Assembly: GCA_040902555.1 (NCBI GenBank)
Contig: JBBDXC010000010.1
Span: forward strand, 2,309 to 66,308
Reading direction: 5' to 3'
Length of the DNA: 64,000 bases
DNA from: Dehalococcoidia bacterium
Lineage (GTDB): Bacteria; Chloroflexota; Dehalococcoidia; WHTO01
Shown here: positions 27,123-47,641 of the stretch, piece after piece
Layout of the letters: every line of letters starts with the position of its first letter
How positions within the stretch are numbered: position 1 is the first letter of the stretch
The notes under the pieces: generated by a model
What the model was told of the DNA's origin: nothing
The model's input: the letters and a program-made list of their open reading frames with translations, nothing else
The model's database searches: none
Made by a program: the position numbers and the translations under genes

Positions 27123-28679
27123 TCAGGGAAGGGGCAGGTCGGGGCCGTCCAGGAGGCCCCCGCCGTCGTCCTCAGGGCCCTCGCCGGGGTCGGGTGTTGT
27201 GTCTGTAACACCTTCGACCTCGTCCACGACGTCCTCGATAGCACTCACCTGTTCGTCGACGGCGTCAGTCAGGTCGTCGGCGGCGTCCTCAACTTCCGAT
27301 ACCACCTCATCGGCGGTGTCGCTCACTTCGTCAGTGGAAACTTCCGAGGACAGGTCACCGTGCGGCAGCTCCCCAACGAGCTCGGCTGAGTCATCAGCGG
27401 CGTCTTCGGAGGTGACCGTCTCGTCGCTCGTGCCTGGTCCATCAGGCTCGACAGCGTCGTCCGGCGAGGGCGAAGCAACGGAGGTTTCGGGCGGCGGGGA
27501 GGCCGGCTCAGACCCCTGGGCCGCCGCTACGTCCTCGCCTGCCCCATGAAGGACCCGGCCGGGCACAGGCGAAATAGTCATTAGGTCGATGCTGACGCCT
27601 CGGCGGTCGACCCGTATTGTGTCGGCGCCCGCTGAGGATGACGTGGCAGCGACGTCGGCACGGTCGCTGGCGGCCTCCAGAGCCGTTTCGGCAGTAATGC
27701 CGCCGGCTGAGCTGTCGTTGGTGACAGCGGCCACGCCGACCACGGTGATTACAGCACCCGCGCCGACAACCGCGACCGCCGAACCGACGGCGGTGGCGCT
27801 GGTCGCAGCCACGGTGCCACCGGCCTTGGCCAGCCCGGCGGACAGCCGCTTGGCGAGGCCGGCGATAGTGGTCCCCAAAGAAAAACCAGGGAGGAGCAGG
27901 GGCGGCAGGAAGCCATGCCAACTGGCGCCCATCTTGTCCTGTACGACCCGGCAACGTGAACAGAGGTCGAGGTGGGTCAGGACGCGCACGCGCCGGCGGT
28001 CGCTGAGCGTCCCGGCGGATAGCCCCCTGAGGTGGGCCCGCATCTTGTAGCAGGCCAGGTTGTCGGAAGCCTGGACCCCGCTGAGCACGGAGTCGAAGTT
28101 GCGATGGAAGTTGGAGCGCGCGCGGTAGAGGAGCGTCTCGACAGCCGACAGGGACTGGCCAAGCCTTTCAGCGATCGCGCAGTAGCTCTTGCCCTCTATC
28201 CAGCGCAGGCGCAGGACTTCTCGCTGCCGGTCCGGTAGCTGCTTGAGGGCGGTGCTGGCGGCGCGGCGGCGCTCATTGAGCTCGGCGATGTCGTAGGGGT
28301 CATCGACGGCCTCGAGCTGGCTTTCGTCGGATTCGTCGAGGTAGACGGCGCGGCGGGTGGGCTCTCTCAGTACGCTGCGGCCGCAGTTGCGGGCTATCGT
28401 GGCAAGCCAGGAGAAGAAAGCTTCGGGGCGATCAAGGTCAGCGAGGCGCTGGTAGGCCTTGAGCCAGGCATCCTGAGCCGCGTCGTCCGCGATCTCAGGA
28501 GGGAGCGACATGCGGAGGCCGGCGAGCAACCTATCGTTGTAGCGCTCATAGAGGCGGCGGTAAGCCCCGTCATCGCCAGCTCTCACTGCTCTGACGAGCT
28601 CGGCCGCCGCCAGGAGTTCCGGTTCGGCCTCTTTTACCATTGGCCGGCCTCTCGCCGGGTTGTCAGCATCTGCACTCAA
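27123..28679 (-). CDS. ECF sigma factor fused to a ZAS-type anti-sigma domain, with TM segment and acidic C-terminal tail
   Basis: 518-aa single ORF. N-terminal ~190 aa has sigma-70 regions 2 and 4 (YRRLYERYNDRLL..., DRQREVLRLRWIEGKSYCAIAERLGQSLSAVETLLYRAR). Then HxxxCxxC zinc-finger motif (LTHLDLCSRC), a Gly/Ala/Val-rich hydrophobic stretch, and an Asp/Glu-rich tail. Confidence 0.8.
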   Translation of the reverse strand: MSADADNPARGRPMVKEAEPELLAAAELVRAVRAGDDGAYRRLYERYNDRLLAGLRMSLPPEIADDAAQDAWLKAYQRLADLDRPEAFFSWLATIARNCGRSVLREPTRRAVYLDESDESQLEAVDDPYDIAELNERRRAASTALKQLPDRQREVLRLRWIEGKSYCAIAERLGQSLSAVETLLYRARSNFHRNFDSVLSGVQASDNLACYKMRAHLRGLSAGTLSDRRRVRVLTHLDLCSRCRVVQDKMGASWHGFLPPLLLPGFSLGTTIAGLAKRLSAGLAKAGGTVAATSATAVGSAVAVVGAGAVITVVGVAAVTNDSSAGGITAETALEAASDRADVAATSSSAGADTIRVDRRGVSIDLMTISPVPGRVLHGAGEDVAAAQGSEPASPPPETSVASPSPDDAVEPDGPGTSDETVTSEDAADDSAELVGELPHGDLSSEVSTDEVSDTADEVVSEVEDAADDLTDAVDEQVSAIEDVVDEVEGVTDTTPDPGEGPEDDGGGLLDGPDLPLP

Positions 28680-29115
28680 GAATACTCAGCCGGCCGGCGC
28701 AAGTTTCGGCGCGCCAGACGTATCTCTACCTCGAAAGCCGCGAACGCCCTGCGCTGCGATGAAATCTCAACGCGAGCCCTGCTGCTGTAACGGTTTTGTT
28801 ACGCGCAGTCGGGGAAACATTCGCTCAGCCGGTTCGCCGGAAGCTCCGCTCCCAGCAACCTGGGCACGGTTCTCATGGTCGCGGGAGCGGTACAGGATGC
28901 TCCCCCATGGAGATCGGCCCTTTCTATTCCCGCAGCAAGCGAGGCTTGGTCGAAAGGCCGCGACTAAACCTGTCGCCCTCATCCCTGAAGCTTTCTCAAT
29001 CACCTTTGAGGAGCCCTGGTGCGACCAACCCCGCCTGCCAGATCTCTCGCCGCCTGGGCTCGGCCCAACAACGGCTTCGCATACCCCAGCGAAATCGCCT
29101 CTTACCGGGCGAGCG

Positions 29116-29197
29116 GACAAACAAGTCAAACAACTCAAACAAACCAACAACTCGCTGGCGAATCTGAAATGGATGCCGCGCCCTTCAAACAATTCAT
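29116..29197 (+). repeat. AC-rich ~80-nt conserved element, copy 1 (upstream of LVIVD-like gene)
   Basis: GACAAACAAGTCAAACAACTCAAACAAACCAACAACTCGCTGGCGAATCTGAAATGGA...TCAAACAATTC; near-identical to the reverse complement of 36509-36591. Confidence 0.7.
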
Positions 29198-29325
29198 CCT
29201 CTCAACCAGCGCAAGTTTTGGCGGGGATTGTGAGTCTCTAAGGAAAGACCACGCGCCGCGTTGCAAACTGTTCGCCTTTCGACTGGTATTGCAAATTGAA
29301 AGGCAGCACGAGAAGGAGTTCGAGG

Positions 29326-30990
29326 ATGGACCATCGAGCTAGAGAACTGTTTGGCGGGGAGGCTTCGACCTTTCCGCTGCGGCGATGGGCGCCGGTTGCC
29401 GTGGCCTTTGTCGCGCTGGTCGTCGGCGTCGTGGCTTCCGCGAGCAGCGTGTTTGGCCACGGTGGTCCTAGCGAAGATGGCTCCGACCCCCTGCGAAACA
29501 CGCCGTTGCCTTGCGAGGTGGTCAACACGCCGGGCCTCACGGCCCGCTCGGCCAACGGCATCGAGCACGTTGCCAACGTCTGCGGCTTCGTCGGCACCGA
29601 CATCGAGTTCCAGTCGCGAATGGCCAATGACGGCGTCCACGATTACGCGTTCGTCGGGACGATGGGCGCCGGAATGCGAATCTATGACATCACCGACCCG
29701 ACAACGCCGACATTCGCCGGGGGCTACGCGGACCCGGGCTGGGAGAATGACATCCAGGTCGAGGGCCACCTTGCGGTTGCTACCTTCGACGGACTCGTGG
29801 GCGAGGACTCCTCAGCTTCAACTTGCCTGAAGGAGCGTTACCCGGACGCAATGGGGCAGGGCGTCGATGTGTACGACCTGGAGTACGACGCGGCTACGGC
29901 GCTATTCAACGTGGTGCTGCTGACCTGCGTGGCGAACCCACCGGGTGGCGCACACAACGTCACATTGAACCCGCGTTCCCAGTGGATGGCCATCTCCAAC
30001 TGCTGTTCCGACTGGGCGATGGATGTCATCGACCTTCGCCGTATCGAGAACAACAGCTCCCGGACGAGTGGAACGGCGCCCGATGCCAAGCACATCTATC
30101 GGCTGATCGATGCCTCGCAGAGGGATTCGTCGACATGTCCGGCCGGGGCGACCTACAGGTGCGTCGTCATCAAGAAGCCGAACGGCACCAACGCCACCGG
30201 GCTCTGGCAGCCTCACGACGTGCACTTCTCGCGCAACGGCAAGACAGCTTACGTGGCGGCGATCAATTCGACGTTCATCATCGACGTCAGCCGGGTATTC
30301 GAGGGCGTAGTCAAAACGATTGCCATCATTCCTAACATCTCGGAGCCCGGTGGCTTCGCCAGCCGGCACAACATTGACATCTCGCACCAGGCGGACGTGA
30401 CCGCGGACGGCAAGATCCTGGTCATCTCGGATGAGCGGGGCGGCGGCCTGACCGACCAGAACTGCAATGTCGAGGCCGGCGACGAGCTGGTCGGAGGCCT
30501 GCACTTTTGGGCCCTCGCCGAGATCAACGGCGTTGCCGCCTCGCGCGGGGCGTCGCCCTCCAACCCCAAGAAGCTTGGCGTCTACGTCAATCCCAACCCG
30601 AACGACCTGGGGGCGGACCCGCTGCAGCCGGCGCTGGATCTTCTCCCGCGCTTCACCTCGGGCTGCACAGTGCACGTGTTCCGCATCGGGCGCAACGGCA
30701 CGGCTTCGCCAGACGCGGCGGAGATTGAATTCGGCGGTGTCTCCAGCCTGAGTCAGCGCCAGCTGACGACGGCCTGGTACGGCGCGGGCGTGTGGTGGAT
30801 CGACTTCTCGGGCCGGCCAGACCGCAAGGCCGGTGACACCATCCGGGAGAGCACGGAGACTACGTGGGGCAACACGCTCGGTTGGAATGTGATGCCTGGT
30901 GCAAGCACGTGGGCGGCCAAGGAGTACAAGGGCTACATCTTCGCCTCGGATATTACGCGCGGCTTCGACGTTTACCGCTTTGCGGACTGA
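29326..30990 (+). CDS. Secreted beta-propeller protein (LVIVD-repeat-like)
   Basis: ATG at 29326 preceded by GAAGGAG; N-terminal TM/signal segment (WAPVAVAFVALVVGVVASASS); repeated blade-like motifs (HDYAFVGTMGAGMRIYDITDP, GLWQPHDVHFSRNGKTAYVA, GYIFASDITRGFDVYRF). Confidence 0.7.
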   Translation: MDHRARELFGGEASTFPLRRWAPVAVAFVALVVGVVASASSVFGHGGPSEDGSDPLRNTPLPCEVVNTPGLTARSANGIEHVANVCGFVGTDIEFQSRMANDGVHDYAFVGTMGAGMRIYDITDPTTPTFAGGYADPGWENDIQVEGHLAVATFDGLVGEDSSASTCLKERYPDAMGQGVDVYDLEYDAATALFNVVLLTCVANPPGGAHNVTLNPRSQWMAISNCCSDWAMDVIDLRRIENNSSRTSGTAPDAKHIYRLIDASQRDSSTCPAGATYRCVVIKKPNGTNATGLWQPHDVHFSRNGKTAYVAAINSTFIIDVSRVFEGVVKTIAIIPNISEPGGFASRHNIDISHQADVTADGKILVISDERGGGLTDQNCNVEAGDELVGGLHFWALAEINGVAASRGASPSNPKKLGVYVNPNPNDLGADPLQPALDLLPRFTSGCTVHVFRIGRNGTASPDAAEIEFGGVSSLSQRQLTTAWYGAGVWWIDFSGRPDRKAGDTIRESTETTWGNTLGWNVMPGASTWAAKEYKGYIFASDITRGFDVYRFAD

Positions 30991-31022
30991 ACGGCGATCG
31001 CGACCGAACACAAAGGGGCGCC

Positions 31023-31055
31023 CCAGGGGCGCCCCTTCTCCGTCTTCTCGATAAT
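31023..31055 (+). terminator. Rho-independent terminator after LVIVD-like gene
   Basis: 25-nt near-perfect palindrome AAGGGGCGCCCC-A-GGGGCGCCCCTT followed by a pyrimidine/T-rich tract. Confidence 0.55.
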
Positions 31056-31063
31056 CGAACGCG

Positions 31064-31970
31064 ATGGACGCCGAACGCGTTGCCTACAAGGGCTGGCCGA
31101 GCTGCTGGAGACTTTCCGATGGGCGCCTTGAGGTCATCGTCACGACCGATATTGGGCCGCGAGTCATGTTCTTCGGCTTTGCCGGCGGCGCCAACGAGTT
31201 CGGGGAAATAGAAGCGACGCTCGGGCATACCGGCGGCGACGAGTGGAAGCCCTATGGCGGACACCGCCTCTGGCACGGGCCCGAGGCCATGCCCCGGAGC
31301 TACCAACCGGACAACGAGCCGCTGGAGGCCCAGGTCAGTGGTGGAGTGGCAACGCTCACGCAGAGGACAGAGGCGGCGACCTGTATCCAGAAGGAGATCG
31401 AGATCAGCTTCGCGGCCGGCGGCGTGGTGGTAAGACACCGCCTCCACAACCGGAACCTCTGGCCGGTCGAGCTGGCCGCCTGGGGAGTGACGATCATGAC
31501 GGCCGGCGGGCAGGCCATCATCCCTCTAGGCCGCTGGGGCGCCCACGGCGAGAACCTGGCCGCTCGCAGCACGGTGTCGCTCTGGGCCTATACGGATATG
31601 ACGGACCCCCGCTGGTCGTTGGGCCGCGACTTTCTCCGCCTCAGGCAGGACAGCGGTAACGGCGAGCCCCAGAAGGCCGGCGCGTACGTGGACGAGGGTT
31701 GGGCGGCGTATGAACGGGGGCGGCCACCTGTTCGTGAAGCGCTTCGATGTCGTGAGTGGCGGCCGCTACCCGGACCTCGGCTGCTCTGTGGAGGTCTTCA
31801 CGAAAGGTGAGGTGCTGGAGCTGGAGACCTTGGGGCCGCTGACCGTGGTCGAGCCCGGCAGAGTGGTTGAGCACGTCGAGCGCTGGTACCTGTTCGAGGG
31901 CCTGGGGGCGTGCGACAGCGAGGAGCAGGTGGCGGGTGAAGTCCTGCCCAGGGTGAGAGAAACGTCATAG
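31064..31970 (+). pseudogene. Hypothetical protein split by a +1 frameshift at a G5 run (frameshifted gene or assembly error)
   Basis: ORF 31064..31810 (248 aa) and ORF 31710..31970 (86 aa) overlap in adjacent frames; the switch maps to GGGGG at 31716-31720; the second ORF has no RBS of its own. Confidence 0.5.
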
Positions 31971-32021
31971 CCTGTCGGAGGATGGCGGCGGAAGGTGGAA
32001 CCGCTAAACTAGAGCACGCGT

Positions 32022-32098
32022 GGGCGATTAGCTCAGTTGGCTAGAGCGCTTGCTCGACACGCAAGAGGTCACTGGTTCAAGTCCAGTATCGCCCACCA
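32022..32098 (+). tRNA. tRNA-Val (anticodon GAC)
   Basis: Cloverleaf by eye: acceptor GGGCGAT/ATCGCCC, D-arm GCTC...GAGC, anticodon stem CTTGC/GCAAG with loop TCGACAC, T-arm with GGTTCAAGTCC, encoded CCA. Confidence 0.9.
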
Positions 32099-32198
32099 CC
32101 TTTTGAATCTGCGTTCGGGGCATTTGGCGCGGCCGTCCATCGCCCGAAGGTGCCACTGCGGTGCCTATTCGCGAGAACCGGGCACCAGGTGCATCAGT

Positions 32199-32274
32199 GG
32201 GGACATAGCTCAGCCGGGAGAGCGCTGCGTTCGCATCGCAGAGGTCGGGGGTTCGAATCCCCCTGTCTCCACCA
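32199..32274 (+). tRNA. tRNA-Ala (anticodon CGC)
   Basis: Acceptor GGGGACA/TGTCTCC with G3:U70, anticodon stem CTGCG/CGCAG with loop TTCGCAT, T-loop GGTTCGAATCC, encoded CCA. Confidence 0.9.
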
Positions 32275-32325
32275 CCCCCCTGCTCGGATGGCCGCCAACG
32301 CTGGCTAAGATAGACCTTGTTCGGT

Positions 32326-32402
32326 GCCCCCGTAGCTCAGGTGGATAGAGCAACGGTTTCCTAAACCGTGTGTCGGGTGTTCGAGTCACCCCGGGGGTAC
32401 CA
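32326..32402 (+). tRNA. tRNA-Arg (anticodon CCT)
   Basis: Acceptor GCCCCCG/CGGGGGT, anticodon stem ACGGT/ACCGT with loop TTCCTAA, T-arm GGGTG-TTCGAGT-CACCC, encoded CCA. Confidence 0.85.
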
Positions 32403-32462
32403 CTTCCGCCCAGGAACCTGAATCTAATCGGCGGCGGCCGTCGACGCGCCTGAGGCTGCCGT

Positions 32463-32918
32463 TTAAGCTGGCGCCTTCCAATCCGATTCCTCGCCCCTCA
32501 TCACCGCCTCCAATGCCAATTTCGCTAGTTCGTCGGTCTCCGACATTAGCTCCTGGTAATCCTTTCCCAGCGCGATGGCCAGTGATCCGAGCTCGATTTT
32601 CGAAACTTCTGACGGGTCGGCGGCGTCCTCAACTGTCAGATCGATGTGACAGAATGAGCGGTAAAGCCCCACAGTCGCGTCCATCAGCTTCGTATAGGTG
32701 ATCACGCGGTCGATGAGTCGAAAGTAGCTTCCCGTCAGATCTGCCGGGCCGGTCGAAACTCTAAAGATCTCATTCGCGTCAGGGAGCGGCACCGCGCCAT
32801 CGTAACGGAAGTTCTGCACGGGCAAGAGCTGCCCCTGGCGCCTCACGGTGACGGAGATAGGGAAGAAATCACTCGCCGGGGCTTCGTCCGGTCTCATCCC
32901 AGTGCTCGCCATAGTCAA
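32463..32918 (-). CDS. Hypothetical protein, visibly lower GC than neighbours
   Basis: 151-aa ORF immediately downstream of the tRNA cluster; no recognisable motif; start ambiguous (several N-terminal Met). Confidence 0.45.
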   Translation of the reverse strand: MTMASTGMRPDEAPASDFFPISVTVRRQGQLLPVQNFRYDGAVPLPDANEIFRVSTGPADLTGSYFRLIDRVITYTKLMDATVGLYRSFCHIDLTVEDAADPSEVSKIELGSLAIALGKDYQELMSETDELAKLALEAVMRGEESDWKAPA

Positions 32919-33024
32919 AATCTACTCCAGACGGAGCGGCCCCGGCCTCATGGATTGCAAACAACAGGAGCTGCCGCCTTGAAGACGGGAGTACTCCAGT
33001 CCATAGGTGTTCTGCCAAGAGCCT

Positions 33025-35346
33025 TTAATGGGGCAAAGGCGGGCTGACAGTAACACCAGCCGCAGCCAGACGCTCAAGATCCGCACCACGTCCGATCTCC
33101 TCGAGGATCTCGGCGGTGTGCTCGCCCAGCAGCGGCGCCACCCGCTGGATGACGCCGGGGGTTTTCGACAGGCGGAAGAGGAGGCCTGTTTGGGTGATTT
33201 GGCCGAGCTCAGCGTGGTGGCCGCTCGCGAGCAGGTCGTTGGCGGCAACCTGGGGGTCGTTGAAGAGGTCGAGGGGCGAGCGGAGGCGGGCACAGGGAAC
33301 CCCGACGCCGTCGAGAAGGCGTTCCGCATTCTTTGAGTCGAGGCCGGCGAGTACGGCGCTTACTGTGGTCGCATCGCTCCGCTCGGGACCGGAGAAACGG
33401 GCGGTAGCGAAGTCCTGTAACGCAAGGCCGAGCGCAGACCCTAAAGCCTCCCAATGGCTCGCTTCGCGGCAGGCTACGAAGAGCCAGTGATCGCCCGCGC
33501 AGCGATAGGCCCGGTAGCCCGGCCAGGGCCCTTTGGCTTCCGATGGTAAGGTGCGGGGTTCAGGAACTCCCTGGCCGAAGAGGAACTGGCCGGACTGGGC
33601 GGCCATCGTGGAGTTGGTCAGCGAGAGGCGGACGTGAGAGCCCTCACCGGTCTTCTCGCGCATCCAAATGGCCGCCAGCGCGCCGAAGGCATTAAGCATG
33701 CCGGCGGCGTGGTCGGACAGCGGCACAGCGAAGAAGACCGGGTCGCCGTCGCCGCCCTGGGCGGCCATTGCGCCCGACCGCGCCTGCAGCAGAGGATCGA
33801 AGGCCGGACGCTCGGCCAGCGGTCCCGTAAAGCCATTACCGACAACGCTGACGTAGACCAGGCGCGGATTGACCGCCTTGAGCGACTCATAGTCGACGCC
33901 GAGCCTCTGGGTGACGCCGGGGCGGTAATTCTCCACGAGCACGTCCGCGCCGCGGACGAGGTCAAGCAGTATCTCCTTGCCCTCAGGGCTGCGCAGGTCG
34001 AGGCCGATGCTGCGTTTACCACGGTTCCAGCCCAGGAAGCCGACAGCCATCTGGCGGAAAGGCTCGCCCTGCACCGGCTCAATCTTGATGACGTCGGCGC
34101 CCAGGTCGGCCAGCATCATTGGGCCAAGCGGGCCGGCGATGTAGAACGACAGATCAAGCACGCGCAGACCATCCAGTGGACTCTTGAGACCACGAGCAGC
34201 TTGCGCCCCTGGTCTGAGCTGCACCCCTGACCAGATTTCCTCGATCGCCCTCTCTCTTGGCACCGGCGCAGCCTTCTTGACGACCGGCTCGTCGGTACCG
34301 ACGCGGATCGGGACGCCCATCTGCACTGTTGGGCCGAGGACTGGGTCGTCGACCTCGACGCGCATGCCATTGGCGATCACCTGCGGGTCATCGATGAAGG
34401 CGCGCCGAGAGCCGACCTGGGCGGCCGGGACGTCCGATGCATCGAAGATGCTCAGCCACTCGCCACAGGGCTTCGAAGCGATGGCCTCGCCGATTACGGC
34501 CACCAGCGCCGCCCGGTAATCGGGAGCGACGACGCCCCAGGGGGCGTTTTGGAAGCGTTCATCGCCGACAAGCTCTGGTCGCTCGATGGCTATCGCCATC
34601 TTGTTGAAGAAGACATTGTTGCCGCAGGCCAGGAAAATCCACTCGCCGTCGGCGCACTGGTAGAGGCGATAGGCCGGGACGGCGCCAAGCGGGAAGCCAC
34701 GGGCCAGCGTGAGGCGCATGACAGCACCTTCGAGGGCGTTGACGAGGCTGCCGGTGGTCATCGCCAGGGCGCCGGCCAGCCAAGACACCTCAACGGTCTG
34801 CCCTCGACCGGTCGTTCGGCGTGCGAGTAGCGCGGCCATGGCCGCAATAGCACCCAGGAAGGCGGCGCCATAGCTCGCGAAGGGTAGCGTCAGGTAGACG
34901 GGCTCCAGGCTGGCGCTCGGCTGACCTTCGAGTAGGCCCGCGGCCGCGGCGGCCAGGGCATCATCCGCGAAGCGGCCGGCGTCGGGGCCGCGCGAACCCA
35001 AGGGCGGCAGCCAAAGGTGAACAAGGTGAGGATGTCTCGTGGCGATCTCGTCGGCATCCAGGCTGGCGGGCGCGGCACGTGGGAGGTAGCTGGTCACGAG
35101 CACGTCGGCGCATTGCAGCAGTCGTTCGAGCCGTTGCCGATCCTCACTACTTTCGAAGTCGACAAGGCAACCATCCTTGCTGCGGTTCCAGACGTGGAAG
35201 CCGGGGAGGCGCCGGCCGGGATCGCCCGACGGCGCGAGCTCGACCTTGACGACATCGGCGCCCTGCTCCGCGAGCAGCATCGTCGCGTAGGGGCCGGCGA
35301 TCTCCTCGCTGAGGTCGACGACGCGCAGGCCTTCCAGAGGCAGCAT
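33025..35346 (-). CDS. CoA-transferase family III (CaiB/BaiF) protein with two tandem complete transferase domains
   Basis: Two copies of the family N-terminal signature (LEGLRVVDLSEEIAGPYATMLLAEQGADVVKVE and LDGLRVLDLSFYIAGPLGPMMLADLGADVIKIE); start taken at ATG 35346 (ORF track 35385). Confidence 0.85.
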   Translation of the reverse strand: MLPLEGLRVVDLSEEIAGPYATMLLAEQGADVVKVELAPSGDPGRRLPGFHVWNRSKDGCLVDFESSEDRQRLERLLQCADVLVTSYLPRAAPASLDADEIATRHPHLVHLWLPPLGSRGPDAGRFADDALAAAAAGLLEGQPSASLEPVYLTLPFASYGAAFLGAIAAMAALLARRTTGRGQTVEVSWLAGALAMTTGSLVNALEGAVMRLTLARGFPLGAVPAYRLYQCADGEWIFLACGNNVFFNKMAIAIERPELVGDERFQNAPWGVVAPDYRAALVAVIGEAIASKPCGEWLSIFDASDVPAAQVGSRRAFIDDPQVIANGMRVEVDDPVLGPTVQMGVPIRVGTDEPVVKKAAPVPRERAIEEIWSGVQLRPGAQAARGLKSPLDGLRVLDLSFYIAGPLGPMMLADLGADVIKIEPVQGEPFRQMAVGFLGWNRGKRSIGLDLRSPEGKEILLDLVRGADVLVENYRPGVTQRLGVDYESLKAVNPRLVYVSVVGNGFTGPLAERPAFDPLLQARSGAMAAQGGDGDPVFFAVPLSDHAAGMLNAFGALAAIWMREKTGEGSHVRLSLTNSTMAAQSGQFLFGQGVPEPRTLPSEAKGPWPGYRAYRCAGDHWLFVACREASHWEALGSALGLALQDFATARFSGPERSDATTVSAVLAGLDSKNAERLLDGVGVPCARLRSPLDLFNDPQVAANDLLASGHHAELGQITQTGLLFRLSKTPGVIQRVAPLLGEHTAEILEEIGRGADLERLAAAGVTVSPPLPH

Positions 35347-35406
35347 CAGCGCAGCACCTCTCCCCCTGGCACCGTCTCCGTCCACCGAGAAGGGGACATG
35401 GGCCTG

Positions 35407-36423
35407 CTACCAGGCCGCGCGCAAACCACGCTCTACCTGCTCTTCACTCAGGACGTGGGCTATGCCGAAGGGGAGGTGGTTCCTCGCGGCATAGTCGGGT
35501 AGGGAGCGCAGCGTGGCTTCAGCCGCAACCCACGGGACGCTTTCTAAGGCGATGCCGGCCTGGTCGAGGGCGTCGCGGAGGGGCTCCCAGTTCTGTTCCT
35601 GGGCTGCCGCGATGGCAACGATACCGGGACCAACGAGTTCGCCATGTGGAAGCCCCGAGCCAACGACATTTTCCACCGCGTAGGCGAAGTAGTGCTCGCT
35701 GCCCTCCTCGGCCCGCGAATGGCCAATGAGGTTGCAAAGCTGCACCTCGATGGCCAGCAGGGACAGGAGGCGCTGCAGAGCCGCGATCTCGCCGCGGCCC
35801 AATCGCGGCGCCAGGAGCACCGCCTCATCAAGGATGTCGCGAGCTATCCGCGCGATGAACGGAATCACGTTGCCGCCGCCGAGTAGCTTTCCCTCGGACT
35901 CGGCGAAGTGCCAGTCCCAAAGTGCTGTGGCGATCGAGATCACGTCGGCGACGCCGGCCGCGCGAATGTAGGCGGGTGCGGCAGCGAGTAGTTCCCAGTC
36001 GAGATAGAGGACCTGGGCGGCGCCCGTCTCGACGTAGGAGACAAAGCCGTCACGGCGAACCCCGCTCGCCGGCGTCAGGAAGGCGTCGACGGAGATTGCG
36101 GTTGGGACGCCGGCCAGCGGCAGGCTGTGCTGAAGCGCGGCGTACTTGGCGGCGTCGAAGGCCAGCCCTCCGCCCACCGCGTAGATCACCTCGACCTGGT
36201 CGGGCATCTCCCTAGCCAGTGACGCGAAGTGCGCTTCGCTGGCCTCAGTTGGCTCAGCGCGCCAGACCTCGTTTACGTTGAGCGTCCCGTTTAGGGCGGA
36301 CCAGGCGGCCGGCTGCGTAAAGATGGCAACGTTGTGGTCCTCGCGGATTCGCGAGAGCGGCGTATTTTCGAAGCCTGGCAGAGCATAGATGCGGAGCACA
36401 GGTTTGGCTTGAGATGTTGTCAT
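35407..36423 (-). CDS. Iron-containing alcohol dehydrogenase / glycerol-1-phosphate dehydrogenase-like protein (DHQ-synthase-like fold)
   Basis: Glycine-rich NAD motif (YAVGGGLAFDAAKY) and metal-ligand region (GHSRAEEGSEHYFAYAVE); ATG at 36423 with GGAAAGG SD (ORF track start 36465). Confidence 0.7.
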   Translation of the reverse strand: MTTSQAKPVLRIYALPGFENTPLSRIREDHNVAIFTQPAAWSALNGTLNVNEVWRAEPTEASEAHFASLAREMPDQVEVIYAVGGGLAFDAAKYAALQHSLPLAGVPTAISVDAFLTPASGVRRDGFVSYVETGAAQVLYLDWELLAAAPAYIRAAGVADVISIATALWDWHFAESEGKLLGGGNVIPFIARIARDILDEAVLLAPRLGRGEIAALQRLLSLLAIEVQLCNLIGHSRAEEGSEHYFAYAVENVVGSGLPHGELVGPGIVAIAAAQEQNWEPLRDALDQAGIALESVPWVAAEATLRSLPDYAARNHLPFGIAHVLSEEQVERGLRAAW

Positions 36424-36508
36424 TCGGTCAGCCTTTCCGGGATGACGGCAACTCCATCCTCGCACGGGGCCAGCGTCGCTCGTGCGCCGGACCTACATTC
36501 GAAGGCGC

Positions 36509-36591
36509 GAGTTGTTTGATGGCCGCAGGGTTCATCTCAGATTCGCCAGCCAGTTGTTGGTTTGTTTGAGTTGTTTGACTTGTTTGATCCT
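36509..36591 (-). repeat. AC-rich ~80-nt conserved element, copy 2 (upstream of Fe-ADH-like gene)
   Basis: Reverse complement reads GATCAAACAAGTCAAACAACTCAAACAAACCAACAACTGGCTGGCGAATCTGAGATGAA...TCAAACAACTC; about 51 of 53 core nt identical to copy 1. Confidence 0.7.
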
Positions 36592-36622
36592 CCCCCCTTG
36601 CCAAGGGGAGGGGAAAGGAGGG
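36592..36622. repeat. REP-like palindromic repeat (copy B)
   Basis: CCCCCCTTGCCAAGGGGAGGGG hairpin immediately abutting AC-rich copy 2. Confidence 0.5.
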
Positions 36623-36890
36623 GCCGCCGCCGTCGGATCCGGAGGACCGATGTGGAACCAGCGAACCCCGCCCCGCCATCTCACCCGTGGCCCCCTACGC
36701 CGAGGCTCATTCTTCGAATTCCGTAAAGAGAGGGGGTAGAGTGAGCGGTCGAAGATCAGCGTGAAACTGGGCGGGCGTGGATAGTTGCACCGGGACTCCC
36801 CAAGGGTGGTTGAGAGAGCTTGAGAGACGAGAGCGACAGGTTTGGTCGTTCTGGTGGCTGCTATTCGCGATCTCTCATCGCGAGCAAAGC

Positions 36891-37363: not shown

Positions 37364-38056
37364 ATGTACCTCAAGCTCCTCCTCGCGCTTGGGCTGATAG
37401 CCCTCGGTCTATTCGAGGCCACCGCCGACAGCCAGGCCGGCCCTCCTCTGTGCGCCGGCAAGGAAGCGACGATCTTTGGTCAGTCGGGCACGATCAACGG
37501 CACGACAGGCAACGACGTAATCGTCGGCTCGGCCGCGAACGACGTGATCCTCGGAAGGGGTGGCAACGACACGATCTGCGCCAGCGCTGGCAGCGACGGC
37601 CTTAATGGGGGCGCCGGAAACGACAAACTCTACGGACAGGCGGGGGACGATGACCTCCTCGGCGGGGCCGGGACCGATGTCCTGTCCGGCGGTGGCGGTC
37701 CTGACCTCTGCAACGGCGGGGGCGGCACGGAGAAGACCATCGGCTGCGAAGTCCTGACGAACCTCACCATAGTTGCCACCGACTTCAACTTTGACATGAA
37801 CCAGTTCAACGTCCGTCCCAACACGACCGTCAGGGTTGCCTTGAACAACAAAACCAACGGCACGCCGCACAACGTAGCGTTCTACACGGACCCGGCGCAT
37901 ACCGACCTTGTGGCCAACACAGCCCTTGTGCCGGGTCCCGCCGTGCGAGAGATAAGCTTCCTGGCTCCAGAGGAGGGAGTGACCTACTTCTACAAGTGCC
38001 AGCAGCATGCAGAGATGAATGGCCAAATGACGACGAACAACGTCTTCCCGCCCTGA
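37364..38056 (+). CDS. Secreted protein with RTX-type glycine-rich repeats and a C-terminal type-1 copper (cupredoxin) domain, paralog 1
   Basis: Signal peptide (LLLALGLIALGLFEATA); repeats GNDVIVGSAANDVILGRGGNDTI...GGAGNDKLYGQAGDDDLLGGAGTDVLSGGGGPD; copper-ligand pattern H...C-x2-H-x5-M (PHNVAF ... YFYKCQQHAEMNGQM); GAAGGAAG SD before ATG. Confidence 0.75.
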   Translation: MYLKLLLALGLIALGLFEATADSQAGPPLCAGKEATIFGQSGTINGTTGNDVIVGSAANDVILGRGGNDTICASAGSDGLNGGAGNDKLYGQAGDDDLLGGAGTDVLSGGGGPDLCNGGGGTEKTIGCEVLTNLTIVATDFNFDMNQFNVRPNTTVRVALNNKTNGTPHNVAFYTDPAHTDLVANTALVPGPAVREISFLAPEEGVTYFYKCQQHAEMNGQMTTNNVFPP

Positions 38057-38084: not shown

Positions 38085-38756
38085 GTGAGAGCAACCATCC
38101 TCCTCCTTATGGCCGTGGCCGCGGCGGTCTTTAGCCTGTCAGGCAGCTCAGCCGGACCGTATTACGGGCAGACCTGCGACGGGGATCCGGTTACCAACAA
38201 CAACACGCCCACGGCGGGCGATGATGTGCTGGTCGGCACTTCTGGTGCGGACAACATCAACGGCGGCGGCGGCCGCGACAAGATCTGCGGTGGGCCGGGC
38301 GCCGACCTCCTTTCCGGGGGCGCCGGGGCAGACGAGCTCTTCGGCGAGGGCGGCAACGACCGCCTCTTCGGCGGCGGCGCCGTTGACACCCTGAGCGGCG
38401 GGCCCGGGACGAAGGACCGCTGTGATGGCGGGGCCGGGTTGGAAACATCGCTCAACTGCGAGATCTTCACCAACCTGACTGTGAAGACGGCCCCTGGCTT
38501 GGAGTTCGCACCCACTACCTTCACGGTCCCGCGGTCCAAGCAGATCAACGTGACACTGAACAACCTCGGCGGGACCCACAACATCGACTTCTACCAGGGC
38601 ACGGACTCATCTGGGGTCTTTGTGGCCGGCACGGATCTCGCCAACGGCCCGAACATCGACGACGTAACCTTCACGACGCCTTCCGAGCCGGGTTCGTACT
38701 ACTACGAGTGCGCGCTCCACGGCTCAGGTATGAGCGGCACCTGGGTGGTGCAGTAA
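38085..38756 (+). CDS. Secreted protein with RTX-type glycine-rich repeats and a C-terminal type-1 copper (cupredoxin) domain, paralog 2
   Basis: GTG at 38085 with AGGA 5 nt upstream; signal peptide; repeats GTSGADNINGGGGRDKICGGPGADLLSGGAGADELFGEGGNDRLFGGGAVDTLSGGPG; copper ligands THNIDF ... YYYECALHGSGMSG. Confidence 0.75.
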   Translation: MRATILLLMAVAAAVFSLSGSSAGPYYGQTCDGDPVTNNNTPTAGDDVLVGTSGADNINGGGGRDKICGGPGADLLSGGAGADELFGEGGNDRLFGGGAVDTLSGGPGTKDRCDGGAGLETSLNCEIFTNLTVKTAPGLEFAPTTFTVPRSKQINVTLNNLGGTHNIDFYQGTDSSGVFVAGTDLANGPNIDDVTFTTPSEPGSYYYECALHGSGMSGTWVVQ

Positions 38757-46084: not shown

Positions 46085-47641
46085 GTGGCCGTGCAACTCA
46101 AACAAGTACTTCAGGCGGTTGAGGGCGTGCGACACGTCGCCGGACCAGAGGATGTCGACATCTCCGATGTCGCCTATGACTCCCGCAAGGCGCGCCCGGG
46201 CTCGCTGTTCATAGCCGTCCGCGGCTTCGTAACCGACGGCCACGAGTACATCGCTAGCGCGGTCGCCCAGGGCGCCTCCGCGGTCATCGTGGAGGAGGGT
46301 CGCGCTGGCGAGTTAGCCAGCAGCCGGTTAAGTCAGTCGATGGCGGTCTACGCGGTCGATGACACGCGGCGGGCCCTGGCGGACGCCGCTGCAGCCTTCT
46401 ACGGCTTCCCGACCCGCGCCCTGAAGACCGTGGGCATAACGGGGACGAAAGGCAAGACGACCACTACCTACCTGACCACGGCGGTGCTCGAGGCCGGCGG
46501 TCATTCGACAGGACTGCTCTCCAGCGTCGAGTTCAAGATCGGCCGGCACTTCGAGGTCAACGGCTCGCAGTTCACAACGCCGGAATCGCTCGAGGTCCAG
46601 TCTCTGCTGCGCCAGATGGTCGACGAGGGCGCCGAGTATGCCGTCGTCGAGTCAACGTCCCACGGGCTCAAGCTCAACCGCCTGCGCAACGTCGAGTACG
46701 ACGTGGGGGTCTTCACCAACCTATATGCCGACCACCTTGATTTTCACCCCGACATGAAGGACTACCTGGAATCCAAGGGTCTGCTCTTCGAGTGGTTGGA
46801 CAGCTCGGCCGATAAAGGAATTCCGAAGACCGCCGTGCTCAACATGGACGACCCGAACAGCGAGTACCTGCAGGGTCGGACCAAGAAGACCAGCGTGGTC
46901 ACTTACGGGGTTAAGGGCCGGGCGGACGTCACAGCCCCCGGCGCTGAGCTCTCCGACAGGGGCTCCCGCTTCCGCCTGCAGACGCCCGCCGGCTCGATCA
47001 ACATCGAGAGCCCGCTGCCCGGCCTATTCAACGTTTACAACTCCCTGGCTGCGTCGGCCGTGGGCTTCAGCCAGGGGGTATCCTTGGAGGCGATAGCGGA
47101 GGGACTGCACAGCGTGCGCGGCGTTCCCGGACGCATGGAGCGCATCGAGAGCAGCCAGCCCTTCACAGTGATCGTCGACTACGCCCACATGCCCGAGTCG
47201 CTGACCGCCGTCCTGCGGGCCCTGCGCCCGCTGACGATGGGTCAGCTGACGGTGGTCTTCGGTTGCGGTGGCGACAGAGACCCCGGGCGGCGTGGAGGGA
47301 TGGGCCGCGCGGCGGCCGCCGGCGCCGATTTCACGGTGATCTGCAACGACAACCCGCGCACCGAGGACCCCCTGGAGATCATCGAAACGATCGCCAACGC
47401 CATGCTTGCGGCGGGCAAGCACGAGGGCCACGATTTCGTGCGCATCCCCGACCGCCGGGATGCCATGACGTTCGCCTTCGAGAAGGCGCGGGCCGGCGAC
47501 GTGGTGTTGGTCGCCGGAAAGGGACACGAGCCCTACCTGATCGTGGGCGACCAGTATCTTCCCTGGGACGACCGCGAGGTAGCCCGGGAGGTCCTGCAAG
47601 AGCTGGGCTGGGAGGCCACCGCCGCCGTCGTCCGGGCGTAA
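46085..47641 (+). CDS. murE: UDP-N-acetylmuramoyl-L-alanyl-D-glutamate--2,6-diaminopimelate ligase
   Basis: 518-aa Mur ligase with ATP-binding motif GITGTKGKTTTT and conserved MurE N-terminus; GTG start. Confidence 0.9.
   Translation: MAVQLKQVLQAVEGVRHVAGPEDVDISDVAYDSRKARPGSLFIAVRGFVTDGHEYIASAVAQGASAVIVEEGRAGELASSRLSQSMAVYAVDDTRRALADAAAAFYGFPTRALKTVGITGTKGKTTTTYLTTAVLEAGGHSTGLLSSVEFKIGRHFEVNGSQFTTPESLEVQSLLRQMVDEGAEYAVVESTSHGLKLNRLRNVEYDVGVFTNLYADHLDFHPDMKDYLESKGLLFEWLDSSADKGIPKTAVLNMDDPNSEYLQGRTKKTSVVTYGVKGRADVTAPGAELSDRGSRFRLQTPAGSINIESPLPGLFNVYNSLAASAVGFSQGVSLEAIAEGLHSVRGVPGRMERIESSQPFTVIVDYAHMPESLTAVLRALRPLTMGQLTVVFGCGGDRDPGRRGGMGRAAAAGADFTVICNDNPRTEDPLEIIETIANAMLAAGKHEGHDFVRIPDRRDAMTFAFEKARAGDVVLVAGKGHEPYLIVGDQYLPWDDREVAREVLQELGWEATAAVVRA

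Follow-up and report, generated by a model that had tools for sequence, protein, structure and literature searches.

Within the 64-kb stretch of a Dehalococcoidia contig analysed here (the window), two unrelated operons are arranged convergently. The first contains the gene of a secreted LVIVD-repeat protein, for which a 100% identical MAG protein exists at NCBI, together with a gene encoding 248 amino acids. The second starts with a gene of the Fe-ADH_2 family and continues with a double CoA-transferase III gene (33025-35385). LVIVD and Fe-ADH_2 show no similarity to each other (best BLASTP E-value 5.7). Each of the two genes is preceded by one copy of an AC-rich repeat, and the genes upstream of the two copies differ in their Pfam family: copy 1 is divergent from a fused ECF sigma/anti-sigma gene, and a DUF1059 gene lies upstream of copy 2. 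No other long repeats were found between the two flanks. As predicted originally, the 7.3-kb block enclosed by the copies contains three tRNA genes (Val, Ala and Arg), an orphan gene of lower GC content (32463-32918) and a frameshifted gene, in which the GC3 signal switches frame at about 31660-31690. Both main genes possess their own Shine-Dalgarno sequence (AAGGAG upstream of the ATG in the case of LVIVD), and the AC tract lies 130-170 nt from their start codons.

Features of the two repeat copies and their neighbouring genes (positions in the window)
Feature	Position	Strand	Description
Fused ECF sigma/anti-sigma gene	27123..28679	-	Divergent from copy 1; Pfam Sigma70_r2/r4, Sigma70_ECF, zf-HC2
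Copy 1 block A	28961..29050	+	90 nt, 77% identical to 36759-36848; hairpin common to both copies
Copy 1 spacer	29051..29117	+	67 nt; no similarity to copy 2 spacer in alignment
Copy 1 block B	29118..29195	+	Array 29118-29153, GCTGGCGAATCTGA, conserved ATG 29169, fifth TCAAACAA motif 29185-29195
uORF1	29169..29342	+	57 codons from conserved ATG; overlaps LVIVD start codon (29326) by 17 nt; GC3 0.60
Secreted LVIVD-repeat protein	29326..30990	+	Downstream of copy 1; Pfam LVIVD; NCBI locus tag WEB00_05740
Fe-ADH_2, glycerol-1-phosphate-dehydrogenase-like	35407..36423	-	Downstream of copy 2; Pfam, homologues, gene calls
uORF2	36428..36535	-	35 codons from conserved ATG; stop 4 nt before Fe-ADH_2 start (36423); GC3 0.69
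Copy 2 block B	36509..36586	-	Array 36586-36551, conserved ATG 36535, fifth TCAAACAA motif 36519-36509
Copy 2 spacer	36587..36758	-	172 nt; strong GC hairpin at end, immediately 5' of AC tract
Copy 2 block A	36759..36848	-	90 nt, 77% identical to 28961-29050

A repeat search of the window revealed two inverted arms of 78 nt (29118-29195 and 36509-36586), which are 88% complementary and lie 7313 nt apart. Aligned with each other by blastn, the copies match over 82 nt at 87.8% identity (E about 6e-22). Compared in register, they differ at two positions of the first 53 nt (positions 36 and 51) and share an exact run of 35 nt. The 26-mer core, searched with up to three mismatches, occurs at two sites only, which are the two copies themselves (0.00 expected from 100 shuffles). 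The original prediction of a near-identical inverted pair was thus confirmed in coordinates and sequence, including the core identity of 51 of 53 nt. No third copy was detected by the repeat and blastn searches within the window. The predicted length of about 80 nt applies to the AC-rich part but not to the full extent of the element, as a second conserved block lies further upstream in both copies. Each copy is bipartite and consists of block A (90 nt, 77% identity), a non-aligning spacer and block B (78 nt, 88% identity). Since block A is found upstream of the AC-rich block in both copies, the repeated unit spans about 235 nt in copy 1 and about 340 nt in copy 2. Divergence between the copies is uneven, with 16 differences in 79 positions of block A versus 2 in 53 in the core of block B (Fisher p=0.008), while the spacers cannot be aligned and differ in length by 105 nt. 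This uneven distribution suggests a constraint on the core.

The AC-rich part of block B was identified by TRF as an array with a period of 9 and 4.1 copies at 29118-29153, in agreement with the four tandem CAAACAA-like 9-mers recognised before. Counting both strands, the 64-kb window contains 11 CAAACAA heptamers, of which eight fall inside the two copies, and it has no further A/C-rich tract of comparable type. Copy 1 carries four ACA motifs in the array and one in the fifth motif at 29185-29195. All predicted folds of both copies leave the tract unpaired, and block B gains no folding stability over its shuffled versions (z -0.03 and +1.4 for the copies). With the period of 9 nt, the tract maintains an (A-R-N)(A-R-N)(UCA) triplet phase, and this would presumably suit binding to the distal face of Hfq. 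Instead of selection, gene conversion between the inverted copies could account for the high identity of the block B core.

Block A can be folded into a consensus hairpin. Comparison of the two sequences revealed three one-sided, wobble-compatible changes and no compensatory ones; these three changes keep the pairing by G-U wobble only on the gene-sense strand. Compared with shuffled sequences, block A is more stable in copy 1 (z -3.2) but not in copy 2 (z -0.15). In copy 1, the fold predicted for the spacer closes with a GC-rich stem directly in front of the AC tract, although without statistical significance (z -1.7).

As had been proposed, each copy is oriented in the same way towards the gene downstream of it. 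The gap between block B and the start codon is 130 nt in copy 1 (29195 to 29326) and 85 nt in copy 2 (36509 to 36423), so that block B occupies positions -208 to -131 and -163 to -86, respectively, relative to the translation start. A conserved ATG without a Shine-Dalgarno sequence is located 16 nt 3' of the end of the AC tract in both copies and opens a short upstream reading frame (uORF) in each. These uORFs are not gene-like: their GC3 values are below those of real genes (0.77-0.82), and the two peptides are unrelated after about residue 10. The repeat itself showed no coding signal, with no significant codon-phase bias (p about 0.15), stops in every alternative frame of copy 2 and a low GC3. 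In both copies the uORF ends within 17 nt of the main start, for which simulations gave chance probabilities of 0.11 and 0.21, or about 0.02 jointly.

The module is most likely a copied regulatory leader, which would be a fairly ordinary kind of feature. More precisely, one non-coding 5' regulatory module may exist here as a family with two members; it would have been duplicated in the manner of a mobile promoter, and its CA/ACA-rich tract would act in the mRNA. This function is deduced from the sequence, and we put the reading forward tentatively, with slightly less than even confidence. The same orientation, the bipartite conservation, the uneven divergence, the conserved ATG and the uORF ends point to a 5' module; of the shared leader, small RNA or regulator-binding array envisaged before, the leader is kept, and the free-standing small RNA is not supported. 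The module would have been placed in the same orientation before two unrelated operons, with both blocks transcribed as part of the leader. Block A would form a moderately conserved, structured 5' part, and this block or the surrounding DNA may carry a non-canonical promoter. Block B would be the functional core, with an unstructured CA/ACA-rich tract made of four 9-nt UCAAACAAC-like units. The tract could offer the 30S subunit a single-stranded platform to land on, either via ribosomal protein S1 or as a standby site; alternatively, it may be recognised by a regulator that acts in trans and is sequence-specific, for instance an RNA-binding protein or a G/U-rich sRNA. Translation from the conserved AUG, which lacks a Shine-Dalgarno sequence, would cross the uORF with its non-conserved peptide and end where the main gene has its ribosome binding site or start codon. 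In this way, main-gene expression would be coupled to initiation at the putative enhancer, and the common module would bring both operons under one post-transcriptional control. Transcription of the module, enhancer activity, coupling and any trans-acting factor are what we infer here. If functional, the module would offer an initial insight into how this uncultured Dehalococcoidia lineage exerts cis-regulatory or post-transcriptional control.

The tandem direct repeats, which are identical in both copies, could also act at the level of the DNA. The 9-bp TCAAACAAC/GTTGTTTGA repeats, together with the fifth unit 50 bp downstream, would then be transcription-factor sites or part of an ECF-sigma promoter, and the two operons would be co-regulated at transcription. 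Cooperative ribbon-helix-helix repressors, acting on short tandem repeats, are a candidate class of binders. The location of copy 1 in the divergent region beside the ECF sigma/anti-sigma gene would fit, and, as no canonical sigma-70 promoter was found, an activator-dependent promoter or the use of an alternative sigma factor is conceivable. Neither a sigma-70 nor a generic ECF motif was found at equivalent positions of the copies, and no TAnnnT hexamer occurs in either region. To our knowledge, the promoters of this Dehalococcoidia lineage are uncharacterised, and we know of no leaders described for it. However, the copies share no conserved ECF pair of the AAC...CGT/GTC type, and none is common to the upstream region of the sigma gene itself. 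The sigma gene is indeed the divergent neighbour of copy 1, but a functional link between the two is not supported, as no conserved ECF-type -35/-10 pair is present at equivalent positions. In addition, LVIVD orthologues elsewhere are not adjacent to sigma genes, and besides the sigma factor no DNA-binding regulator is encoded within about 10 kb. With a 9-bp period, neighbouring sites would also point to different sides of the DNA helix, and neither the G-U-only changes in block A nor the conserved ATG/uORF geometry would be explained at the DNA level. We therefore regard an operator or promoter array at the DNA level as unlikely.

A non-functional origin was also considered. The copies could be the relic of a local inverted duplication or two decayed MITE- or REP-like elements, in which gene conversion, starting from the longest identical stretch, preserved the near-identity of the block B core. 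Just two copies, inverted and 7.3 kb apart, are typical of a local rearrangement, and prokaryotic genomes often contain upstream repeat families with two members (PMC3488235). The small hairpins in block A resemble REP/IS200-type ends, and the presence of two frameshifted genes in the vicinity points to possible decay of the region. No homologues were found elsewhere: the element is absent from the nearest relatives (59-65% protein identity), has no match in the phage, plasmid and viral collections and was not detected in two large genome/metagenome scans with one exact-word pattern each. On the other hand, no hallmark of transposition was observed. Terminal inverted repeats are lacking (longest match of the head with the reverse-complemented tail 5-6 nt), as are target-site duplications (longest flanking direct repeat 5 nt). 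Multiple dispersed copies or a cognate transposase would mark a MITE- or IS-derived repeat; within the 64-kb window there are two copies, and none of the annotated ORFs was found to encode a transposase, integrase, invertase, RAYT or recombinase. The view that the copies are not transposon ends is thus supported. A relic would also be expected to differ from what is seen here, where polarity is the same and the distance to the start codon is similar in both copies, and where the conservation peak coincides exactly with an unusual low-complexity tract plus the ATG. Simple-sequence tracts normally expand, contract or decay, yet the four imperfect 9-mers are identical in both copies. The probability of a mere relic is accordingly low in our estimation; if it is nothing else, the repeat has no wider significance.

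Beyond the ordinary copied leader, the module might be a dedicated, lineage-specific post-transcriptional device, in which the UCAAACAAC platform recruits ribosomes without a Shine-Dalgarno sequence, or an RNA-binding regulator or sRNA, and sets the translation of a small regulon via the uORF. We consider such a device doubtful, with a rather small probability; if it were real, further genomic copies would define the regulon.

The inverted geometry and the perfectly identical core of 35 nt could make the pair a substrate for recombination, in which a 7.3-kb inversion acts as a genetic switch and swaps the upstream regions of the two operons. About 35 nt is roughly the minimum length for efficient RecA-dependent homologous recombination, and with this core an inversion by homologous recombination is physically possible. 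Invertible segments combine inverted repeats with a nearby invertase; here the repeats are present, but the window revealed no gene for an invertase or a site-specific recombinase. Furthermore, an exchange in block B would swap near-equivalent upstream halves and leave each gene with the 3' part of block B that it had before, with little phenotypic change expected, and the MAG contig shows a single arrangement. Two Logan unitigs of sample SRR27977660, which come from an independent assembly, are exactly identical to the window (29123-32050 and 32346-36581). Both begin 30 nt before the first difference between the copies, the point at which a k=31 assembly graph is expected to break at a repeat; these unitigs do not tell inversion isomers apart, since the identical core of 35 nt exceeds k-1. 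We found no support for a programmed inversion switch, which is very improbable. As the unitigs break there, the repeat pair is a known hazard when this MAG is assembled from short reads, and it could allow rare inversion.

A free-standing structured sRNA is not supported, as Rfam gave only noise and the AC-rich block folds no better than shuffles. In the Rfam search, only three tRNAs passed the gathering threshold, and the best permissive matches reached 14-20 bits compared with thresholds of 35-99 bits; the suggested Rfam check thus assigned the AC-rich element to no family. Neither an RNA family nor a close homologue was found for the module in Rfam, the collections and the exact-word scans. 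Two copies of an independent small RNA gene spanning blocks A and B, which would act in trans via the single-stranded CA-rich region, would suit the succession of a structured and an unstructured part and the stable block A of copy 1, but are most improbable given the missing Rfam match, the copy 2 block A that is no more stable than shuffles, the varying spacer length (67 vs 172 nt), the lack of a terminator after block B on the sense strand and a conservation that continues into the ATG, toward the downstream gene.

The copied leader can be compared with several known systems. Nine-nucleotide CAAACAANN microsatellites, which occur mainly in Bacteroidota MAGs, have the same heptamer and the same period and often lie just 5' of start codons; among 59 intergenic arrays, a gene start is located within 150 nt in 20 cases in sense and in 12 in antisense direction. 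These microsatellites are perfect, variable in length and without similarity beyond the array, in contrast to the four imperfect, fixed units inside a larger conserved module described here. Leader-peptide or uORF coupling resembles the module in that both copies have a short ORF whose peptide is not conserved and which terminates at the main start or overlaps it. It differs in that here no attenuator or terminator, no anti-SD hairpin common to the copies and no conserved stalling peptide are present, and the geometry is unlikely by chance only at the level of about 2%.

Unstructured 5' tails have been reported as ribosome standby sites (PMC5934652). Standby sites and S1-dependent leader enhancers are similar to the module, in which an unstructured tract lies between predicted structured RNA and upstream of a start, but the S1-dependent enhancers described are mostly A/U- or U-rich, in contrast to the A/C-rich tract here (PMC5934652; bioRxiv 10.1101/808485). 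In enterobacteria, CA-rich or ACA-motif sequences upstream of starts stimulate translation, and the G/U-rich sRNA GcvB silences them (Sharma et al., 2007, as cited in bioRxiv 10.1101/808485; Yang et al., 2014, PMC3879156). The module likewise has a C/A tract with ACA motifs (4 + 1), single-stranded in the predicted folds and just upstream of a translation start, and this tract is more conserved than its surroundings, as is expected for an accessible or regulator-complementary site. In contrast to GcvB targets, the tract precedes a uORF start without Shine-Dalgarno sequence and not the Shine-Dalgarno sequence of the main gene, and no G/U-rich partner of the putative enhancer was found in the 64-kb window, where the single 12-nt complement to the tract (46094-46105) lies inside a CDS and is within chance expectation. 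We know of no GcvB-type CA-rich enhancer system described in Dehalococcoidia, which belong to the Chloroflexota. If the module is functional, the enterobacterial principle would extend to a distant phylum, combined with a uORF.

A further comparison may be made with putative mobile promoters (PMPs). Homologous upstream regions before non-homologous genes are common, and families with two members form the majority (68%), with a mean identity of 92% and a mean length of 66 nt (Matus-Garcia et al., 2012, Nucleic Acids Res, PMC3488235). In that survey, PMPs were defined by more than 50 nt aligned at an identity of at least 80%, flanking CDS that do not align and a fragment from -150 to -50 (PMC3488235). 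The 78 nt at 88% found here exceed both alignment limits, and the flanking CDS do not align (LVIVD vs Fe-ADH_2, E 5.7; ECF sigma vs DUF1059). Only 20 nt of block B of copy 1 lie inside the -150 to -50 window. The module therefore fits the PMP concept but would fail the window of the survey. Unlike PMPs, it has a core farther from the starts, a bipartite unit with a variable spacer and, instead of a recognisable promoter, a low-complexity CA array with ATG and uORF. Common to both is similar non-coding DNA before non-homologous genes with unrelated flanking CDS, and the module is a concrete case of the reuse of a regulatory region before unrelated genes.

The original prediction described a near-identical, AC-rich pair of inverted elements. 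This pair is present as described, and the repeated unit exceeds the size given there, as it is extended by a second block (block A) and a spacer. The AC-rich block B was identified by repeat search as two inverted arms of 78 nt with 88% complementarity and a gap of 7313 nt. Its first 53 nt are in register between copy 1, located before the LVIVD gene, and copy 2, located before the Fe-ADH_2 gene; they contain 2 differing positions, C/G at 29153 and 36551 and A/G at 29168 and 36536, and an exact run of 35 nt. The region 29118-29153 shows a period of 9 nt with 4.1 copies (TRF), and 8 of the 11 CAAACAA heptamers on both strands of the window lie within the two copies. An A/C richness comparable to this tract was found nowhere else in the 64 kb. 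When searched with up to 3 mismatches, a 26-nt core occurs in both copies and at no third site (shuffle expectation 0.00). Block A is a second inverted repeat (90 nt, 77%), which is located upstream of block B in both copies. Copy 1 has 67 nt of spacer between the blocks and copy 2 has 172 nt, and the two spacers cannot be aligned to each other. Both copies follow the order block A, spacer, block B, 85-130 nt, gene start, and each unit is directed towards the gene 3' of itself. No third copy of block A or B was found in the window by nhmmer profiles or by blastn with a word size of 7.

Two Logan unitigs of the sample SRR27977660 (29123-32050 and 32346-36581) are identical to the window sequence. 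Both start exactly 30 nt ahead of the first position at which the copies differ, as is predicted for a k=31 graph break at the repeat. Since the unitigs match exactly and break in this way, the repeat does not stem from an error of a single assembler. The ends of these unitigs (L120, L001) inside tRNA-Val (32050) and tRNA-Arg (32346) indicate that the tRNA cluster is another break point of the assembly graph of SRR27977660.

Features of the repeated unit and of the genes around it (window positions)
Feature	Position	Strand	Remarks
Fused ECF sigma/anti-sigma gene	27123-28679	-	divergent, flanks copy 1
Block A, copy 1	28961-29050	+	
Block B, copy 1	29118-29195	+	
uORF1	29169-29342	+	57 codons; 17-nt overlap with LVIVD ATG
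Secreted LVIVD-repeat protein gene	29326-30990	+	other flank of copy 1
248-aa gene, function not assigned	31064-31970	+	frameshifted; between the copies
tRNA cluster	32022-32402	+	between the copies
Double CoA-transferase III gene	33025-35385	-	786 aa, two tandem family III domains; Fe-ADH_2 operon
Fe-ADH_2 gene	36423-35407	-	flanks copy 2; heads operon with double CoA-transferase III (Pfam)
uORF2	36535-36428	-	35 codons; stop 4 nt before Fe-ADH_2 ATG
Block B, copy 2	36509-36586	-	
Block A, copy 2	36759-36848	-	
DUF1059 gene	37248-37066	-	just outside copy 2
Paralogous secreted protein genes	37364-38056, 38085-38756	+	adjacent

The LVIVD protein (WEB00_05740 in the NCBI MAG annotated as Dehalococcoidia bacterium) and the Fe-ADH_2 protein are mutually unrelated. 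The divergent gene next to copy 1 encodes a single chain of 518 aa with ECF sigma regions 2 and 4 and a zf-HC2 anti-sigma zinc finger, and therefore sigma and anti-sigma factor are fused. This polypeptide further has a stretch that appears hydrophobic and may span the membrane, and its acidic tail is long. Between the copies, tRNA-Val, tRNA-Ala, tRNA-Arg and a lower-GC orphan gene were found, together with the 248-aa gene. In the latter, a GC3 of 0.8-0.9 passes from frame 0 to frame +1 at about 31660-31690, and the +1 frame continues to a stop near 31970. The independent Logan unitig L120 is exactly identical here, and the gene is a frameshift or pseudogene. The upstream neighbour of copy 2, a DUF1059 gene with a hairpin, looks frameshifted too. 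Its domain-like C-terminus PTPELIAMVRANIEDDSK (stop) reads in the +1 frame after ...HDLEP, and the unshifted frame is open for 238 codons, across copy 2, to a TGA at 36534-36532 overlapping an ATG conserved between the copies. The CoA-transferase gene contains internal DNA repeats with a spacing of 1161 nt, and the two paralogous secreted proteins carry RTX calcium-binding nonapeptide repeats and a C-terminal cupredoxin domain (plastocyanin/azurin-like). The Pfam scan covered 40 of 55 GC3-filtered ORFs, including all above 300 aa and all located no more than about 10 kb from the repeats; these are ordinary housekeeping or metabolic genes.

The copies differ at 16 of 79 positions in block A and at 2 of 53 in the block B core (Fisher p=0.008). 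This suggests that constraint is strongest in the low-complexity core, unless the core was homogenised by gene conversion. Compared with shuffles, folding of block B shows no gain (z -0.03 and +1.4), and no predicted fold contains base pairs in the tract. GC-rich stems, which are not significant, stop 2-4 nt 5' of the tract in both copies. The only block A hairpin common to both copies contains 3 substitutions, none of them compensatory, and at all 3 pairing is kept only via G-U on the gene-sense strand. The conserved ATG, which has no Shine-Dalgarno sequence, is located 16 nt 3' of the array in both copies and opens uORF1 and uORF2. In simulations, the chance of such an ORF ending no more than 30 nt from the main ATG was 0.11 and 0.21, about 0.02 jointly. 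Past about residue 10 the two peptides are unrelated, and the uORFs have GC3 values of 0.60 and 0.69 compared to 0.77-0.82 for real genes. If the uORFs have a role, it would therefore come from their being translated rather than from the product.

From these features of the sequence, we tentatively favour a duplicated 5' regulatory module that may act mainly at the mRNA level. The single-stranded CA/ACA-rich tract would serve as a ribosome-loading (standby or S1) or regulator-binding platform for the AUG lacking a Shine-Dalgarno sequence. Translation of the uORF would then either supply ribosomes at the main gene's start or open that start, and the common module would co-regulate the two operons. 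Transcription of the tract, its enhancer activity, the coupling and any trans-acting factor are what we infer here. A G/U-rich partner complementary to the tract was not found within the window, nor was a common downstream fold sequestering the main ribosome-binding sites, and the leaders show no gain in folding over shuffled sequence. Terminator-like hits antisense to the tract were rejected, being weak 6-7-bp stems no more frequent than expected by chance. We set aside a Rho-utilisation (rut) site, as the C>G region spans about 38 nt only and lies upstream rather than downstream of the uORF. The unit is also not protein-coding, since each long frame open through copy 1 is interrupted in copy 2. 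Third positions account for 9 of the 16 differences in block A, a non-significant excess (p about 0.15) that is due to an excess of transitions.

Conservation in relatives, which the original prediction had proposed to check, was not observed. The best non-self homologues reach at most 65% identity for LVIVD and 59% for Fe-ADH_2, gene order differs at the orthologous loci, and the element was not found at those fetched. At one orthologous LVIVD locus (L121) the upstream region is unrelated, and the Fe-ADH_2 orthologues belong to another operon, directly 3' of a glycoside-hydrolase gene. Apart from the two unitigs, which come from the same organism, no fetched locus was matched by the block A and B profiles. 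The pattern CAAACAANNCAAACAANNCAAACAA, used for scanning a genome collection, was too permissive and yielded at least 116 unrelated low-complexity arrays; the profiles of blocks A and B fitted none of those listed. With the specific 20-base pattern CAACAACTNGCTGGCGAATCT, 2 matches were obtained in metagenomes, which were rejected as chance matches inside coding sequence. Viral contigs scanned for blocks A and B gave no match, nor did plasmids and phages when searched by blastn at low stringency. Because relatives are effectively absent, the readings of anatomy and function rest on two sequences, copy 1 and copy 2, and not on phylogenetic comparison or covariation.

A DNA-level operator or an alternative-sigma promoter array is an unlikely explanation, which keeps some plausibility because the promoter search located none. 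Motifs for sigma-70, extended -10, sigma-54 (by eye only) and generic ECF factors were not found at equivalent positions in both copies. The hexamer TAnnnT does not occur on the gene-sense strand at 28800-29330 (+) and 36990-36420 (-), 530-570 nt each. The search found no recognisable promoter, with neither a sigma-70 pair nor a conserved ECF-type pair nor TAnnnT, and the suggested link of copy 1 to the neighbouring ECF sigma gene is without support. The promoters of both intergenic regions are either non-canonical or located elsewhere. Improbable to a similar degree is a duplication relic without function, or a decayed MITE, kept by gene conversion. The unit is not recognisable as a mobile element, as neither terminal inverted repeats nor target-site duplications were found, nor a cognate enzyme among the 40 scanned ORFs. 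The earlier choice of a regulatory element rather than transposon ends is reasonable, but its support is partial and the regulatory role is putative. Inversion of the 7.3-kb block, also considered originally, is very improbable: the 35-nt identical core would permit a rare RecA-mediated event, but no transposase, integrase, invertase or other recombinase was found among the ORFs scanned, only one isomer is evident in the MAG contig and the functional consequence would be small. A free-standing sRNA is just as hard to credit; in Rfam only the tRNAs reach the thresholds, and permissive matches reach 14-20 bits where 35-99 bits are required and are noise, so that a known RNA family was rejected.

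For the favoured mRNA-level module, several precedents have been described. ACA motifs or CA-rich sequences 5' of start sites act as translation enhancers, and the G/U-rich sRNA GcvB pairs there (PMC3879156; bioRxiv 10.1101/808485). A role of unstructured 5' tails as ribosome standby sites is reported in another study (PMC5934652). As a crude outside comparison, 9-nt CAAACAANN arrays from unrelated genomes were taken from the matches listed. Out of 59 intergenic arrays among them, 20 have a gene start within 150 nt in sense and 12 in antisense orientation, a mild bias which is compatible with a leader role of such tracts. In contrast to the window element, to which they are not homologous, these arrays are perfect microsatellites. 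In other phyla, CAAACAANN-like arrays frequently end few to tens of nt 5' of a start codon. In unrelated Bacteroidales MAGs, a perfect satellite of 9-nt units (AATGCAAAC) was observed in many dispersed copies, with fetched loci L004, L016, L020, L037 and L052 in CAIWMX01 (Bacteroidales bin-2482) and L018, L021 and L039 in CAIYQH01. Homologous upstream regions before non-homologous genes are widespread and were termed "putative mobile promoters"; in the survey that describes them 68% of the families have two members, with a mean identity of 92% and a mean length of 66 nt (PMC3488235). The element belongs to these known kinds, reused upstream regulatory DNA and CA-rich leader tracts, and its novelty is that of a lineage-specific instance of them.
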